Assembly (NCBI GenBank): GCA_964429295.1
Contig: CAYSBL010000009.1
Location: 1,448-65,447, forward strand
From: an uncultured Rikenellaceae bacterium
Lineage (GTDB): Bacteria; Bacteroidota; Bacteroidia; Bacteroidales; VadinHA17
Direction of reading: 5' to 3'
Length of the DNA stretch: 64,000 nucleotides
The notes under the pieces are model-generated. The model was not told where the DNA came from and ran no database searches. It saw only the letters and a program-made list of their open reading frames with translations. The position numbers and the translations under genes are program-made. Shown piece by piece: positions 10,100 through 55,431 of this stretch. Numbering within the stretch: the first letter of the stretch is position 1; each line of letters begins with the position of its first letter.

Positions 10100-11374
10100 T
10101 TACCTCTTATATGTTCTTCTCTTGCTCATCAGATCTTCGATGACGTCATCCACAACCACCATCCCCTGCAGGAGGTTTTCACGATCGACAACAGGGACGG
10201 CCAGCAGATTGTATTTTGAAATGGTTTCGGCAATATCATCTATCCTCTGATCATCATAAAGGAAGACCGGCAGGGGTTTCATGACATTGCTCAGAACAGT
10301 TTCCGGTTCAGCAATAATGAGGTCGCTCAGGCTGAATGCCCCTACCAGCTTGTCATCCTCCTCCGTGACAAAAAGAGAATACAGTTCGGAAGGTTCGGGT
10401 TTTTTGCTCCTGAGTTCCCTGATAACCTCCTCCACCGTCAGCTCCGACCTGAATGACAGTACATCGGTGGTCATGAGCCCGCCGGCAAGGTTGTCGGGGT
10501 ATTCAAGGAGTTCCCTGACCTCCTGAGACAATTCACTGTCCATCTCCTTCAGAAGGAGTTCAGCCTTCTCATCCTCAATCTCATCCAGGATGTCGGCAGC
10601 CTCATCAGCAGGCATCTTTTCCAATACATCAGCAGCCTTGGTAACAGGAAGGCTTTCAATTATATGAACCTGCGTCTCAGTATCCATCTCCTCAAGGACA
10701 TCTGCAGCCTTTTCCTCATCGAGGGCAGAAAAAACCGAAGTACTCGATTTCCTGCCAAGATCCTCCAGTATATCGGCAAGGTCCGATGGATGAAGAGTGT
10801 GGAGTTTTGCGTAACTCTTTGAAAGCTTGATATTGAAATTGGAGAAGTCAATTGCCTGAACATCGTCCCAAAGGATGTATTTGGACGGGATCTTCATCCT
10901 TAAGAGGGAAAGAACTCTTTGCATCGGTATAAGTATCCCAATCCTGCGAAGCAATCCGGCAATACCTATATCAACCGCTACTGCAAAAGTTCCGGTTGGC
11001 AGGGTTGCCAGCCTCACGTCATTGACCCGGACCAGCTTCCTGCCGTTAAGGTCAACAATCTGCTTGTCCTGAATGTTTTCAACCAGAAGCAGGCCCTCCG
11101 AAACCTCGTCGCCGCTCAACTCAATGAGATCATAGCAAGTCACATTGATGTTCTCTCGTACCTTTACAACTCTGAAGGTCGTGAAGGAATACAACTTCGT
11201 CTCCTTTCCGATCTTCAGCTTGATTCCGGTTATCATCTGCTGGTGGGGATTATTCTGTCCCGAGGGAACAGCATTTACCATGAGATCCCTGATCACGCCG
11301 ATAACATCACCGTCGGCTCCGAAAACCTCCTTTCCGGTAATTCCGCTTAAATAAAAAGTTGTAAGTGATGTCAT
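10100..11374 (-). CDS. Soluble MgtE N-domain + CBS-pair protein with N-terminal PRC-barrel-like region; no TM domain
   Basis: LHPSDLADILEDL, acidic MgtE-N repeats, AGGLMTT and KYNLLAVPVVD CBS motifs. Start moved to ATG 11374, which sits 5 nt after GGAGG. Confidence 0.88.
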   Translation of the reverse strand: MTSLTTFYLSGITGKEVFGADGDVIGVIRDLMVNAVPSGQNNPHQQMITGIKLKIGKETKLYSFTTFRVVKVRENINVTCYDLIELSGDEVSEGLLLVENIQDKQIVDLNGRKLVRVNDVRLATLPTGTFAVAVDIGIAGLLRRIGILIPMQRVLSLLRMKIPSKYILWDDVQAIDFSNFNIKLSKSYAKLHTLHPSDLADILEDLGRKSSTSVFSALDEEKAADVLEEMDTETQVHIIESLPVTKAADVLEKMPADEAADILDEIEDEKAELLLKEMDSELSQEVRELLEYPDNLAGGLMTTDVLSFRSELTVEEVIRELRSKKPEPSELYSLFVTEEDDKLVGAFSLSDLIIAEPETVLSNVMKPLPVFLYDDQRIDDIAETISKYNLLAVPVVDRENLLQGMVVVDDVIEDLMSKRRTYKR

Positions 11375-11375
11375 A

Positions 11376-11413
11376 GTCACCTCCTTTCTTTTACTGATAC
11401 AGAAAGAGGTGAC
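11376..11413 (-). promoter_or_regulatory. Shine-Dalgarno-sequestering hairpin
   Basis: Minus strand GTCACCTCTTTCT-(11-nt loop)-AGAAAGGAGGTGAC pairs fully apart from one bulged G; covers the SD of the MgtE-N gene. Confidence 0.8.
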
Positions 11414-11434
11414 CAGCTGACTGGTCCGGCTCCT

Positions 11435-11479
11435 CTATATCAGAGAGTTAAATAATATACTCGCAGGGCCGTCGTCCAT
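11435..11479 (-). CDS. Putative 14-aa leader peptide MDDGPASILFNSLI
   Basis: ATG GAC GAC GGC CCT GCG AGT ATA TTA TTT AAC TCT CTG ATA TAG. The stop overlaps the AGAGG arm of an alternative hairpin. Not in the ORF track. Confidence 0.6.
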   Translation of the reverse strand: MDDGPASILFNSLI

Positions 11480-11603
11480 AAGGATATGAAAATTTGTTCG
11501 CGGCGTAAAAGTAAACTCCCGAAAAGGAAATTCCAAATAAAAACCTAAGAAAGTTGAACTGAATTGAAAGGGAAAACAGAGGAGTAAAATTTGGGAACCA
11601 GGA

Positions 11604-12089
11604 TCAACCTGCCTCAGCCATTCCCGTTTTCCTGAGCAGCAGGATTATCTTCAGCGCCTCATCGGCATGCTTCTGCACTCTTGTCTGAGAATTGAATATA
11701 TAAACAATCCTGCCCGATTTGTCAGTAACAAAGGTTACACGGCCGGGTATCAGCCCGAACATATTTGAAGGCACGCCAAACAGCTTTCTTACCACATCAC
11801 CTGTGTCGCTGAGCAAGGTGTAGTTCAACCTGTTCAGTTCTGCAAACTCCTTATGACTTTCGACCGATTGCCCGCTTATTCCGATAACCACGGCATCATT
11901 TTCATCGAAAACATCATTTATATCCCTGAAATAACAGGCTTCCCTTGTGCAGTAAAGACTTCCGTCCTGAGGATAAAAGAAAATGACCAGTTGTTTCTTC
12001 CCGATAACATCCTTTATTTTGAAAATTTTCCCATCCTGGTCAGGAAGGGAAAACTCAGGGATCATGTCTCCTACTTTCAGTGATTTCAT
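11604..12089 (-). CDS. bcp: Peroxiredoxin, BCP/PrxQ type
   Basis: LKVGDMIPEFSLPDQDG, FFYP..YCTREAC (CxxxxC), GRVTFV. Start moved to ATG 12089. Confidence 0.88.
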   Translation of the reverse strand: MKSLKVGDMIPEFSLPDQDGKIFKIKDVIGKKQLVIFFYPQDGSLYCTREACYFRDINDVFDENDAVVIGISGQSVESHKEFAELNRLNYTLLSDTGDVVRKLFGVPSNMFGLIPGRVTFVTDKSGRIVYIFNSQTRVQKHADEALKIILLLRKTGMAEAG

Positions 12090-12179
12090 ACTCCGGCAAT
12101 TTAGCAAAAAAATACATTTCCCAAAATTTCGGGCCGGCAGTTTCAACAGACACCATCCTTATGATTAAGTTCATGCAAT

Positions 12180-13742
12180 ATGGAAACAATAATTCATAAT
12201 TTTGAATCGCCGGAGAGGTACATAAAAAACAACAGGATGCAGGATCTTGAAAAGCACTTTGACCAGTTCAGAAAGGAAATTGTAGGCCTTGACGCTTATA
12301 TAGATACGCCTTACGGAAGAAAGAAACTGGTGTACGCCGACTGGATAGCAAGCGGCAGGCTTTACCGTTCCATAGAGAGAAGGTTAAGCGATGATATAGG
12401 TCAGATGGTGGGAAATACCCACTCCGAATCATCTGCGACCGGAAAAGCAATGACGGATGCCTATCACATGGCACAGAAGATAGTGAAACATCACGTCAAT
12501 GCCGACGAAAATGATATAATAATCTTCACCGGAACCGGAATGACATCGGCAATTGCAAAACTGCAGAGAATACTTGGACTGAAGGTGCCTGAACAAGCTA
12601 TCAACTATTGCGTTTTCACCCATGGAGAATACAGAAACTGCCGCGAGATACCCAATGAGAACCGTCCGGTGGTTTTCCTTACCCATGCCGAACATCACTC
12701 AAACCACACATCATGGTTTGAAACGCTTGCCGAAGTGGTAGTTCTCGAACCGGCTGACGGATTGAGAGTGGATCCCGGAACACTCCGGTCGAAAATACAG
12801 AGGTACAGGGACCGGCCCCTTCTCATAGGTTCATTCACTGCATGTTCCAATGTCACCGGGTATCAACCGCCGTACCATGAACTTGCAAGGATCATGCATG
12901 AGCACAACGGATACTGCTTTGTCGACTTCGCTGCCTCGGCTCCTTATGTTGATATAAACATGCATCCGTCTGACAGAATGGAGCAGCTCGACGGGATATT
13001 CTTCTCACCCCACAAATTTCTCGGTGGACCCGGAAGTGCAGGAGTGCTGGTGTTCAACAAACAGTTGTACAGAAATGAGACACCCGACACACCGGGAGGC
13101 GGAACAGTAAAATGGACCAACCGCTGGGGAGGGTATAGTTACATCAGCGACATTGAGGTCAAGGAAGACGGAGGAACACCCGGATTTCTGCAGGGCATAA
13201 AAGCTGCAATGGCTATCACCCTGAAGGAAAAGATGGATATCGGAAAGATAAGGGAAAGGGAGGAATATCTTGTAAGCCTTGCCTTCAGGAAACTTCAAAT
13301 GATCAAAGGTTTGCACATCCTGGCTGAGAATATTACAGACAGGCTGGGAGTATTTTCATTCTATTACGACAATGTCCATCACAACCTCGCAACAAAGCTG
13401 CTGAACGACAGGTTCGGCATACAAGTAAGGGGAGGTTGCTCCTGTGCAGGTACTTACGGCCATTTCCTGCTCAATGTCGATTTCCAGCTCTCAAGGGAGA
13501 TCACCGAGAGAATAGATGCTGGCGACCTGTCGATGAAACCAGGCTGGGTAAGGCTTTCACTTCATCCCACCATGACTGAAGCGGAACTCCGATACATCAT
13601 TGAGGCTATTGAACAGGTTGCTGAAAATGCCGGTGAATGGGCAAAGGATTACTGTTACAACAATCACACAAACGAATTTCACCATATAACGTACGAGGAT
13701 ACCAGCTTGGCAAATTCGATGAAGTGGTTTGAAATTGACTGA
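12180..13742 (+). CDS. PLP-dependent class V aminotransferase (cysteine desulfurase-like)
   Basis: YADWIASG, EHHSN, DFAASAPY, SPHKFLGG (PLP Lys), RGGCSCAG. The start could be 12237. Confidence 0.88.
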   Translation: METIIHNFESPERYIKNNRMQDLEKHFDQFRKEIVGLDAYIDTPYGRKKLVYADWIASGRLYRSIERRLSDDIGQMVGNTHSESSATGKAMTDAYHMAQKIVKHHVNADENDIIIFTGTGMTSAIAKLQRILGLKVPEQAINYCVFTHGEYRNCREIPNENRPVVFLTHAEHHSNHTSWFETLAEVVVLEPADGLRVDPGTLRSKIQRYRDRPLLIGSFTACSNVTGYQPPYHELARIMHEHNGYCFVDFAASAPYVDINMHPSDRMEQLDGIFFSPHKFLGGPGSAGVLVFNKQLYRNETPDTPGGGTVKWTNRWGGYSYISDIEVKEDGGTPGFLQGIKAAMAITLKEKMDIGKIREREEYLVSLAFRKLQMIKGLHILAENITDRLGVFSFYYDNVHHNLATKLLNDRFGIQVRGGCSCAGTYGHFLLNVDFQLSREITERIDAGDLSMKPGWVRLSLHPTMTEAELRYIIEAIEQVAENAGEWAKDYCYNNHTNEFHHITYEDTSLANSMKWFEID

Positions 13743-53785: not shown

Positions 53786-54057
53786 GATTTAAGGTATTTA
53801 CCCAAAGGTAATTGAATTTTTAATATTAAAACTTAAAGTGCCCTGAAACTGGAAGGCTATCGGGTCAGGAAGGAGGTGATGAATAAATGGCATAATACCA
53901 TTACACCATACTTTGACGGCACCCAGGCAGGCTCCAACCTGTTTCATTTCCCTGAAATCTTTAATATGTAAATGCAGGAATATTTATGCATAACAGGACA
54001 AAGTAAAATATATTTATCATATATTTAAAGATCAAATTATTAAGACCACATCCAACC

Positions 54058-55431
54058 ATGAAGAAAACTAGAAGAGATTTTATTAAATCAGCAGGTGCAT
54101 TTACCGCAGGTGCATTTTTTATTCCCAACCTTATAAGTTCTTCGCCCGCAAACAAGCTGAATATTGCTGTTATCGGCGTTGGCGGACAAGGAGCCGCAAA
54201 CTGGGGCAGGGTTATTAATCAGAAAGATCCGCTCTGGAATGAAAACATCGTGGCATTGTGCGATGTTGACGACAACAGGGCTGCTTCCGGCTATAAAGCA
54301 ATGCCAGATGCCAGGCGCTTCAAGGATTTCAGGATAATGCTCGACCAGATGCAAAGGGAAATTGATGCCGTGATGGTCTGCACTCCCGACCACACCCATT
54401 TCCCGGCTGCAATGGCTGCGATGGAGCTTGGCAAACATGTCATTGTCGAAAAACCGCTTGCACACAACGTCTGGCAACTAAGGACACTGCAGAAAGCAGC
54501 CAGATACTACAAAGTAGTTTCCCAGCTGGCTAACCAGGGACATGCCACAAATGGCATTCGCCAGGTGAAAGAATGGTATGATGCAGGATTACTGGGAAAT
54601 GTTACTGAGGTAATAGCCTGGTTTGACGGTCCTACCTTTGGGAAAAACCTGTATTTCGACAAGCCCGAAAGCTTTCCGCCTGCAGGACAACCTGTTCCTG
54701 AATACCTCGACTGGGATCTGTGGCTGGGACCGGCAGCATTCAGGCCGTACAACGCTATCTATGCCCCAAAGACATGGCGAGGCTGGTTCGATTTCGGTAA
54801 TGGCGAAATGGGAGACTGGTGCTGCCATACCCTCGATGCTCCGTACTGGTCGCTCGATCTGGGAATGCCTTCTGTGGCAGAAACCGAGTTCAAATCGCCG
54901 GTTCCCGACAATGGATTTGTCTCAGACAAAGCCATTATACGCTGGGATTTCCCGGCACGCGGAAACAAAGTCCCTGTTACCATGCGCTGGTACGAAGGAG
55001 GATTGAAACCCGATAACCGTCCGGAATGGAACCTTGACAAACTGCCTGGAAGCGGCATGATCATGGTTGGCGACAAACAGTGCCTTATGACAGGCGGTCG
55101 TCCGAATAATCCCAAAATATTGGTGCCTGACAAAGACTGGGCAGAATATCAGAAAAGCCTGCCGGTTCAAACCATCCCGAGAACATTCGAGGAAAACCCG
55201 CAGCGCGAATGGGTTGATGCCATCAAGAATAATAAACTGCCGGGTTCGAATTTCGATTATTCTGCAGGAATGGTGGAGATGGCTCTCATAGGAGTCCTGG
55301 CACAAAGATTCGATACCCGCATTGAATACGATGCGGCAAATATGAAAGTCAGGAATCATCCGGAGCTGGATGCCTATATCAGGGAACCTGCCCGAAAGGG
55401 ATGGGAATACGGGGAAAACCTGTGGAAATGA
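54058..55431 (+). CDS. Tat-exported Gfo/Idh/MocA oxidoreductase
   Basis: TRRDF signal, IGVGGQG, TPDHTH, VEKPLAH, GDWCCH. Confidence 0.92.
   Translation: MKKTRRDFIKSAGAFTAGAFFIPNLISSSPANKLNIAVIGVGGQGAANWGRVINQKDPLWNENIVALCDVDDNRAASGYKAMPDARRFKDFRIMLDQMQREIDAVMVCTPDHTHFPAAMAAMELGKHVIVEKPLAHNVWQLRTLQKAARYYKVVSQLANQGHATNGIRQVKEWYDAGLLGNVTEVIAWFDGPTFGKNLYFDKPESFPPAGQPVPEYLDWDLWLGPAAFRPYNAIYAPKTWRGWFDFGNGEMGDWCCHTLDAPYWSLDLGMPSVAETEFKSPVPDNGFVSDKAIIRWDFPARGNKVPVTMRWYEGGLKPDNRPEWNLDKLPGSGMIMVGDKQCLMTGGRPNNPKILVPDKDWAEYQKSLPVQTIPRTFEENPQREWVDAIKNNKLPGSNFDYSAGMVEMALIGVLAQRFDTRIEYDAANMKVRNHPELDAYIREPARKGWEYGENLWK

Follow-up and report, generated by a model that had tools for sequence, protein, structure and literature searches.

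A stretch of 64,000 nucleotides (nt) from an uncultured Rikenellaceae bacterium (GenBank assembly GCA_964429295.1, contig CAYSBL010000009.1), designated here the window, carries on its minus strand a magnesium-uptake operon of two genes preceded by a leader of about 130 nt. The leader contains a short upstream open reading frame (uORF) and two alternative RNA structures, helix A and hairpin B, and is probably a ribosome-mediated translational attenuator of the mgtE_N/CBS-NRMT operon. The first gene encodes a soluble protein with Pfam matches to the PRC-barrel, MgtE_N and CBS domains and lacks a membrane domain. The product of the second, which begins 8 nt past the first, matched the solved magnesium transporter EleNRMT (7qia) with an E value of 1.7e-114 and was identical to it across both aligned segments, NDAGGI and GTTIAPWM. 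These segments were taken by pattern, and not by residue-number mapping, to hold the DxxG/TxxA signature that sets the Mg2+-carrying Nramp-related Mg2+ transporters (NRMT) apart from the Mn2+/Fe2+ Nramps. A gene for an "MgtE cytoplasmic domain" is the usual partner of nrmT, and in Firmicutes the pair is controlled by the M-box riboswitch (PMC4072509). The magnesium transporter operon that an earlier sequence-only reading of the window had placed downstream of the leader was thus borne out. The features of the locus, in window coordinates, are:

12146-11604, minus strand: AhpC/TSA peroxiredoxin gene, the upstream neighbour; the 223-nt gap between it and the first regulated gene holds the leader
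11534-11537, minus strand: -33-like promoter element TTTG, within TTATTTGG, 20 nt 5' of the -7-like box
11506-11513, minus strand: -7-like promoter element TACTTTTA, of the TAnnTTTG type
11479-11435, minus strand: uORF, 14 sense codons MDDGPASILFNSLI plus TAG (ATG 11479-11477; TAG 11437-11435)
11476-11462, minus strand: uORF codons 2-6 (D-D-G-P-A), an acidic/proline block; proposed sensor and region 1
11443-11430, minus strand: 5' strand of helix A, CUGAUAUAGAGGAG (region 2), beginning at nt 37 from the uORF AUG
11426-11411, minus strand: inner hairpin GACCAG-UCAG-CUGGUC, 6 bp, enclosed by helix A and flanked by AGAGG/CCTCT
11413-11401, minus strand: strand complementary to the Shine-Dalgarno (anti-SD strand), GUCACCUCUUUCU (region 3), resembling the 16S rRNA 3' tail
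11408-11394, minus strand: 3' strand of helix A, CUCUUUCUGUAUCAG (part of region 3)
11389-11376, minus strand: Shine-Dalgarno (SD) strand AGAAAGGAGGUGAC (region 4), with the extended SD, just 5' of the main ATG
11374-11372, minus strand: start codon ATG of the main gene, where homologues begin MTSLTTFYLS
11374-10100, minus strand: regulated gene 1, PRC-barrel + MgtE_N + CBS protein, 424 amino acids
10091-8835, minus strand: regulated gene 2, NRMT, 418 amino acids

The TTTG/TAnnTTTG pair presumably represents a promoter of the Bacteroidetes type. In the related loci examined for this feature (every second locus of the genome set described below), ATTTGG was kept at the -33-like position and TACTTTTG/A or TATTTTTG was conserved, ending approximately 25-30 nt 5' of the uORF ATG. 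The position of the promoter places the putative transcript start near 11501-11497 (CGAAAUCAA), so that an A/U-rich 5' stretch leads straight into the uORF. An alternative GTG start for the main gene, at 11380, lies inside the SD strand.

The two strands of hairpin B, GTCACCTCTTTCT (11413-11401) and AGAAAGGAGGTGAC (11389-11376), pair throughout except for a single bulged G; the inner hairpin is followed by CACCUCUUUCUGUAUCAG, then by an 11-nt loop and then by the SD strand. Hairpin B was the minimum free energy fold of 11500-11360, at -38.2 kcal/mol compared with -29.2 +/- 3.4 kcal/mol for shuffled sequences (z = -2.6). When the SD was held single-stranded, the best fold was a long helix A, in which CUGAUAUAGAGGAG (11443-11430) pairs with CUC-UUUCUGUAUCAG (11408-11394) and encloses the inner hairpin. 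Both structures use 11413-11394 and consequently cannot coexist. The sequence-only reading had listed the 14-codon uORF, the AGAGG/CCTCT and GACCAG-TCAG-CTGGTC pairings, hairpin B and the ATG, all of which lie where it had put them, and its claim that the two structures are mutually exclusive was upheld. Its structure A exists as well, only the extent was understated, helix A being longer than the segment it had given.

The conservation of the leader was assessed in one genome scan and one metagenome scan. The genome set comprised 80 species-level loci whose MgtE_N protein is 68-92% identical; all of the records are annotated as Bacteroidota (Bacteroidales, Bacteroidia or Rikenellaceae) save L072, which is labelled Chloroflexota. 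A metagenome set of 80 loci, centred on a 52%-identical relative, was pooled with it, giving 154 loci with sufficient upstream DNA, of which 150 carried the leader, in 139 unique versions. A covariance model of the leader had a single match within the 64-kb window, and in the metagenome loci it matched the expected sites only, plus extra copies in L139 and L153.

Both structures were conserved well above controls in which one strand was slid against its partner. In a MAFFT alignment of the 80 genomes, 81.9% of the cells of helix A and the inner hairpin were paired versus 35-55% with the partner slid, and the covariation score was 0.273 versus at most 0.123. The corresponding values for hairpin B were 88.2% versus 39-57% and 0.221 versus at most 0.10. 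A second alignment, of the window leader and 76 metagenome-locus matches, was made with the covariance model. It gave 81.6% paired cells versus 34-49% for helix A and the inner hairpin, with 18 of 18 pairs changed on both sides, 192 doubly changed cells compared with 53 after shuffling and a score of 0.401 versus 0.154, values to be read with the bias of a model fitted to these very helices. Hairpin B, which was absent from the fitted model, was 80.3% paired versus 40-72%; its double changes were confined to the base, the SD side being invariant while the anti-SD side wobbles from C to U. The inner hairpin taken by itself had 72.7-79.5% of its cells paired and double changes in 4-5 of 5 pairs in the two alignments. 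RNAalifold, applied to the MAFFT alignment as it stood, detected no more than the base of hairpin B; detection of helix A needed per-sequence constrained folds together with the covariance-model alignment. When each leader was folded with and without the SD kept free, the median difference was -2.45 kcal/mol in favor of B. The recurrence of the structures with covariation in 150 of 154 loci is far stronger evidence than the fold score of the window, and it answers in the affirmative the covariation question that the earlier reading had raised.

The inner hairpin and the following ACCTCTTTCT were flagged by a scan as an intrinsic terminator, the sole match of this kind. This assignment was rejected, since the stem has merely 5-6 bp and the T run is weak; in other leaders the stem is followed by a C/U-rich anti-SD (ACUUCCUCCUG) and no U run.

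The uORF was present in 79 of the 80 species-level genomes, the exception being L066, where the first codon is ATA, and the ATG was retained in 138 of the 139 unique leaders. In the close clade represented by the 80 genomes the peptides read MDD[G/D/Y/V/I]PA followed by 3-13 unconserved residues, with the stop at nt 28-58, and the uORF AUG and the main AUG were 97-113 nt apart (97-124 nt over all leader-bearing loci). The distant-clade peptides began MDDLPD, MDDAPA, MDDHPA, MDEGPA/S/T/E/D, MDGDPA or MDPYPA and ended in dissimilar tails of 13-24 residues; overall the uORFs ranged from 9 to 24 codons.

The substitutions in the conserved block had a three-base period. Over the 139 leaders the entropies at positions 1, 2 and 3 were 0, 0 and 0.40 bit for codon 2, 0.11, 0.26 and 1.06 bit for codon 3, and 0.11, 0.06 and 1.13 bit for codon 5, while all three positions of codon 4 were variable. 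Codon 3 was GAN in 134 leaders (GAC 104, GAU 20, GAA 9, GAG 1) and CCU (2) or GGN (3) in the others, and codon 5 was CCG, CCU or CCC in 137. The consensus was therefore M-D-[D/E/P/G]-x-P, with replacements of D by E (GAC to GAA or GAG) and of D by P (MDPYPA), so that nearly all 139 leaders have a cluster of aspartate, glutamate or proline (DE/P) right after the initiator methionine, residues 2, 3 and 5 being D, D/E/P and P. Third-base wobble combined with conservative D/E/P exchange is the pattern expected of a translated peptide under constraint of its composition. The conservation of MDDGP, which the sequence-only reading had left to be checked, is in this way confirmed by the 150 leaders, their wobble and the exchange of D for E or P.

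The start of the uORF is of the A/U-rich, SD-less type that Bacteroidia use: the 25 nt upstream were about 70% A+U, G-poor and devoid of an SD, and the predicted pairing between the SD and the anti-SD of the 16S rRNA (SD-ASD) had a median of -1.8 kcal/mol, with none at or below -8. In the window the AG of the uORF stop overlaps AGAGG, as the earlier reading had it. Across the 80 genome-derived leaders this overlap did not hold, the stop falling anywhere between 8 nt short of the point where helix A starts and 21 nt beyond it. The median position of that point was nt 37, counted from the uORF AUG (range 32-47 for the 80 leaders; 5th-95th percentile 33-43 in the 139), so the conserved quantity is the spacing of the DE/P block to helix A and not the overlap of the stop with AGAGG. 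Two other roles for the uORF were discarded. A trans-acting small protein is at odds with the retention of only the first six residues, the remainder varying in sequence and the whole in length from 9 to 24 amino acids, and termination-reinitiation coupling with a uORF stop that lies 44-72 nt 5' of the main AUG. The layout of the leader, the mutual exclusion of its structures, their conservation and the coding signature of the uORF thus all follow from the sequence and its comparison across loci.

The other end of the leader is equally distinctive. GGAGG was invariant in the 80-genome set, the spacing from the SD to the AUG was 5 nt in 113 of the 139 leaders and hairpin B ended 1-4 nt 5' of the start codon. 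The SD-ASD duplex of the main gene was -22 kcal/mol, the sole strong SD among 48 window ORFs, a crude set with a median of -1.65 kcal/mol; over the 139 leaders the median was -17.5 kcal/mol and 123 were at most -13 kcal/mol, all of these energies having been computed with an assumed 16S tail, GAUCACCUCCUUUCU, not this genome's own, and by a method that differs from that of the cited papers. The "perfect SD" oligonucleotide used in PMC7797042 has the same sequence, AGAAAGGAGGU. In Bacteroidia, exceptionally strong SDs (-14 to -21 kcal/mol) have been described as characteristic of rpsU, whose translation is carried out by bS21-free ribosomes. The main gene, with an SD-ASD energy beyond about -13 kcal/mol in an SD-poor genome, resembles rpsU in the strength of its SD, an anomaly for this lineage on which the sequence-only reading had not remarked.

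Strong SDs are otherwise scarce in the window. A second perfect extended SD, GGAAGGAGGTGAT, was found in an intergenic region on the plus strand (53868-53895). A two-codon ORF (ATG GCA TAA) comes 6 nt further on, about 180 nt 5' of a GFO/IDH/MocA oxidoreductase gene (54058-55431).

The sequence-only reading had seen no M-box in the leader, and none was found by Rfam. A search of 10900-12200 with E values up to 10 returned neither the M-box (RF00380) nor any other family, the whole window matched only tRNA at the gathering score, and 20 related Bacteroidales-type loci had no match, which also disposes of the possibility that the region belongs to a known Rfam family. Over 32 loci the matches were M-boxes in three non-Bacteroidales relatives, L168, L169 and L174, and because the same search recovers the M-box there, it serves as a control.

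These relatives belong to a wider set of homologues, obtained through a 46%-identical relative, that added eleven distinct leaders (L162 and L163 being copies of L161). A Bacteroidales locus, L161, encodes MDDGPASRSD..., while L164 and L165, from a Spirochaete metagenome-assembled genome, encode MDPYPSRP... with AAAGGAGG upstream, and L172 has the uORF MDAGPGSPDY. In the corA-mgtE_N-NRMT operons of L167 and L171 the uORF (MPDDGSS... and MPDPYGSS..., respectively) precedes corA, each with an SD. L168 (1130-1500) and L174 (1093-1500) have an M-box (108-110 bits) and a terminator, a uORF (MDVDPTG... and MDADPMG...) and an SD-sequestering hairpin, whereas L169, from a Bacillota genome, has the M-box alone. 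No such uORF was found in L170 or L173, and the 72 nt upstream in L166 are too short to judge. The six loci examined outside the Bacteroidales set, one annotated as Spirochaetes and the rest untyped, each had a run of purines resembling an SD no more than about 20 nt 5' of the uORF. This type of uORF accordingly accompanies the operon across phyla with different nucleotide sequences, in place of or behind an M-box. The interchange of M-box and uORF in homologous operons is the best available evidence, of an indirect kind, that the signal is magnesium, and their tandem arrangement in L168 and L174 indicates that they are separate devices. Two minor features of these loci may be recorded: the uORFs of L167 (313-430) and L171 (263-360) have 32-37 codons and share the tail ...SPFIC.P.R.GR, and in L168 and L174, where the uORFs are led by an SD, flagellar genes lie nearby.

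A mechanism can be proposed that would link these elements. Helix A would form first during transcription and leave the SD open. A ribosome that completes the uORF, with its stop at nt 28-58, would open several to all pairs of the 5' strand of A; the anti-SD would be freed, the slightly more stable hairpin B would form and the operon would be off, as expected when Mg2+ is sufficient. The acidic/proline start is probably a poor substrate, particularly so early in the chain, and is similar to the motifs for "intrinsic ribosome destabilisation" in MgtL (MEPDPT) and MgtQ. Under low Mg2+ the ribosome would pause or abort at codons 2-6, short of helix A at nt 37; the footprint of a ribosome whose P site holds codon 5 or 6 extends to roughly nt 28-33. 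Helix A would then persist, the SD would be exposed and the operon would be on.

Pausing would have the further effect of masking region 1, which could otherwise pair with region 2 in some lineages and so favor B. Codons 2-6 of the uORF are partly complementary to the segment 3' of the 5' strand of helix A (UAUCC/GGAUA, CCGGC/GCCGG, CGGCC/GGCCG), and the native 1:2 duplex had a mean energy of -10.74 kcal/mol compared with -9.98 +/- 0.16 kcal/mol when the segment came from another leader. The L143/L144 clade has a long 1:2 helix with a compensatory pair, GACGACGACC/GGUCGUC changing to GACGGCGACC/GGUCGCC. A search of the leaders for a fixed RNA partner of the conserved uORF block yielded only short helices in shifting registers. 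The 1:2 pairing is likely to be real in some lineages, and there is some evidence, in that case, for a classical four-region attenuator.

The principle is already published for mgtQ and mgtL; what differs here is the phyla, the transporter, the peptide and the RNA, together with an unexpected, SD-based output in Bacteroidia. Literature searches found no such leader described in Bacteroidota, in agreement with the sequence-only reading, which knew of none. Other precedents in the literature are CorL, MgtM, MgtP and a mycobacterial M-box with a uORF. The closest is Salmonella mgtQ, with 8 codons, in which a ribosome on region 1 permits stem 2:3, freeing the mgtB ribosome binding site (RBS) (PMC8092293). 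Common to the two are a very short uORF whose acidic codons destabilise the ribosome, or are predicted to do so in the present leader, a stem 2:3 that holds the anti-RBS and frees the RBS of a Mg2+ transporter, an alternative stem 3:4 that holds the RBS (both stems covary in the present leader) and an output, here a putative one, at translation initiation. The likeness is partial in that the mgtQ uORF overlaps region 1 of a 1:2/2:3/3:4 set, of which 1:2 here varies by clade. There is no apparent sequence relationship. The mgtQ uORF is intergenic within its operon, whereas the one described here has 9-24 codons, lies at the transcript 5' end and reaches into or near region 2. Moreover, the Salmonella transporter is a P-type ATPase, its place being taken here by an NRMT with an MgtE_N/CBS partner, the host is an SD-using Proteobacterium there and a member of the SD-blind Bacteroidia here, and in mgtQ translation itself is reported to promote expression.

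The mgtA leader peptide MgtL, and likewise corL, mgtM and mgtP, is also encoded within the 5' leader of a Mg2+ transporter gene. N-terminal D/E/P clusters lead to Mg2+-sensitive abortive translation in MgtL (MEPDPT) and in other E. coli proteins, and the present uORF resembles MgtL, by composition only, in its DE/P motif right after the methionine (MEPDPT compared with MDDxPA and MDPYPA). Mg2+-dependent completion of the uORF remodels the leader in the enterobacterial system and is proposed to do so here. The outputs probably differ, Rho-dependent transcription termination in the one and, to judge from the conserved hairpin, SD sequestration with no conserved terminator in the other; the peptide, the RNA and the phylum are different. 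In other lineages the M-box is found in the corresponding position upstream of homologous mgtE_N-NRMT operons, presumably for the same purpose, but it is a metal-binding aptamer of about 165 nt, usually with a terminator. The trp and his attenuators are similar in that translation of a leader peptide chooses between 2:3 and 3:4 and the position of the ribosome on region 1 is the signal; they differ in that 3:4 here hides an SD rather than forming a terminator, and in that the proposed sensing codons, Asp and Pro at the extreme N-terminus, are unrelated to the operon product. The extended SD of rpsU (bS21) in Bacteroidia (PMC9976891, PMC13000453) is likewise complementary to 10-13 nt of the 16S tail, but the present gene does not encode a ribosomal protein, a conserved anti-SD hairpin covers its SD and a uORF lies upstream.

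Several other explanations of the leader were considered. If the switch consisted of RNA only, the equilibrium between A and B would itself sense Mg2+, another ligand or temperature, and the "uORF" would be an RNA element that is open by chance. The near iso-energetic states, the retention of GCG at codon 6 and of GAC at codons 2-3 beyond what a peptide needs and some complementarity of the uORF block to downstream sequence would suit such a switch. It is nevertheless very improbable, given the three-base periodicity of the entropy, a codon 3 that is GAN with all four third bases, the replacement of D by E or P, the ATG kept in all but one of the unique leaders and an initiation context that suits each lineage. 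The uORF block, in addition, has no consistent partner, a leader of about 130 nt behind a conserved promoter leaves little room for an aptamer, and neither the window nor the 20 related loci matched an Rfam family.

It is also conceivable that the leader is a peptide-controlled attenuator that responds to something other than Mg2+, such as charged tRNA-Asp or tRNA-Pro, the activity of elongation factor P (EF-P) or general translation capacity, in the way that the mgtA and mgtCBR leaders of Salmonella respond in part to proline. The conserved residues are indeed Asp and Pro, and two reports describe the Pro codons of Salmonella MgtL and MgtP as sensing proline supply and EF-P (PMC6460261, PMC5299641). 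This alternative is unlikely, since the operon encodes a Mg2+ transporter with an MgtE-like partner, the same type of uORF occurs in tandem with an M-box and the uORF has a single Pro codon, a free codon 4 and none of the Pro-Pro or Asp runs typical of supply sensors. Finally, the real regulator could be the SD/anti-SD hairpin, acting by restriction to ribosomes with a free anti-SD, such as those without bS21, or by simple damping, with the uORF a constitutive, non-sensing helper in opening or closing it. An SD side that is invariant opposite an anti-SD side that wobbles, SD-ASD energies in the range reported as typical of rpsU in 123 leaders, the isolation of this SD among the window ORFs and the loci L139 and L153, where helix A and the SD precede the main gene in a copy that has no uORF, are all consistent with this idea. 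It would leave unexplained why the first six acidic/proline codons are conserved across phyla while the remainder is free, and why the spacing from the uORF to helix A is fixed, and is likewise improbable.

The interpretation of the leader as a ribosome-mediated attenuator has its own difficulties, and the following observations weigh against it. Codon 6 (Ala6; 11462-11464 in the window) is GCG in 131 of the 139 leaders without the wobble of its neighbours, which implies that part of the block is constrained also at the RNA level. The uORF, or the whole leader, is missing in four variants. L084 has no leader and a promoter-like box lies directly 5' of the ATG; in L117 the uORF start, ATGGACGATCACCCGGCG, is just 31 nt 5' of the main ATG and out of frame, and the switch is absent. 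In L139 (2094-2512) a leader with a uORF (MDDYHSDLL, helix, ACGGAGG) lies about 300 nt further upstream, before an ORF of approximately 45 amino acids, and a second copy of helix A and the SD directly precedes the mgtE_N gene with no uORF; L153 is probably arranged in the same way. In the window's own clade the 1:2 pairing is weak, 4-7 bp in varying registers. The covariance-model alignment, as noted, was biased toward helix A and the inner hairpin to which it was fitted, and the covariation controls leave phylogenetic non-independence in place.

Other points concern the mechanism and the signal. Translation of the uORF, a stall or abort on MDDxPA and a response to Mg2+ are what ribosome geometry and the enterobacterial precedents suggest. 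A pause and a drop-off, either of which may apply, predict different fates for region 1, and the choice matters if the 1:2 pairing is real. A member of the transporter group in A. capsulatum, which has no riboswitch, was found to carry mainly Mn2+ (PMC4072509), so the ion sensed by the leader could differ from Mg2+. The ribosomes of Bacteroidia, furthermore, are reported to be "blind" to SDs, with bS21, bS18 and bS6 sequestering the 16S tail, and how such ribosomes read an invariant SD guarded by an anti-SD is unexplained by the attenuator model.

A broader proposal, tentative and on balance doubtful, has two linked parts. The M-D-x-x-P uORF may represent an old cross-phylum family of Mg2+ leaders, whose output in Bacteroidales is an rpsU-class SD that needs an exposed anti-SD. 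If both parts were true, the leader family would accompany the mgtE_N/NRMT (and corA) operon, alone or behind an M-box, in Bacteroidota, Spirochaetota and other lineages, and translation of the operon would be restricted to ribosomes in which the anti-SD is exposed, such as the late-assembly or bS21-free 30S subunits expected to accumulate under Mg2+ shortage. The operon would then be the first known client of "specialised ribosomes" in the class that does not encode a ribosomal protein, and its expression would report the state of the ribosomes directly.

Detailed knowledge of how Mg2+ uptake is controlled is confined to the enterobacteria (MgtL, CorL, MgtM/P/Q) and the Firmicutes (M-box). 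If the attenuator model is correct, the use of the translating ribosome as a Mg2+ sensor would be widespread, would probably have arisen recurrently and would here be joined to the NRMT class of transporters. The operon is also a sharply defined case for the question of which ribosomes read a strong SD in an SD-blind lineage and in what manner they do so, and the M-box and the DE/P uORF, interchangeable in position before the operon and at times in tandem, make a clean comparative system.

The NRMT gene was directly downstream of the mgtE_N gene in 127 of 134 related loci. The seven without it were L082, L088 and L109 and, by tblastn alone, L084, L086, L098 and L117. Inspection of L082, L088 and L109 showed that no large same-strand ORF adjoins the mgtE_N gene, which in L082 and L088 is followed by a gene on the opposite strand. 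From the loci that lack NRMT, the leader seems to be tied primarily to the MgtE_N/CBS protein. The AhpC/TSA peroxiredoxin gene found upstream in the window also neighbours the operon in the distant Bacteroidales locus L161 (123-647), where it has the other orientation.

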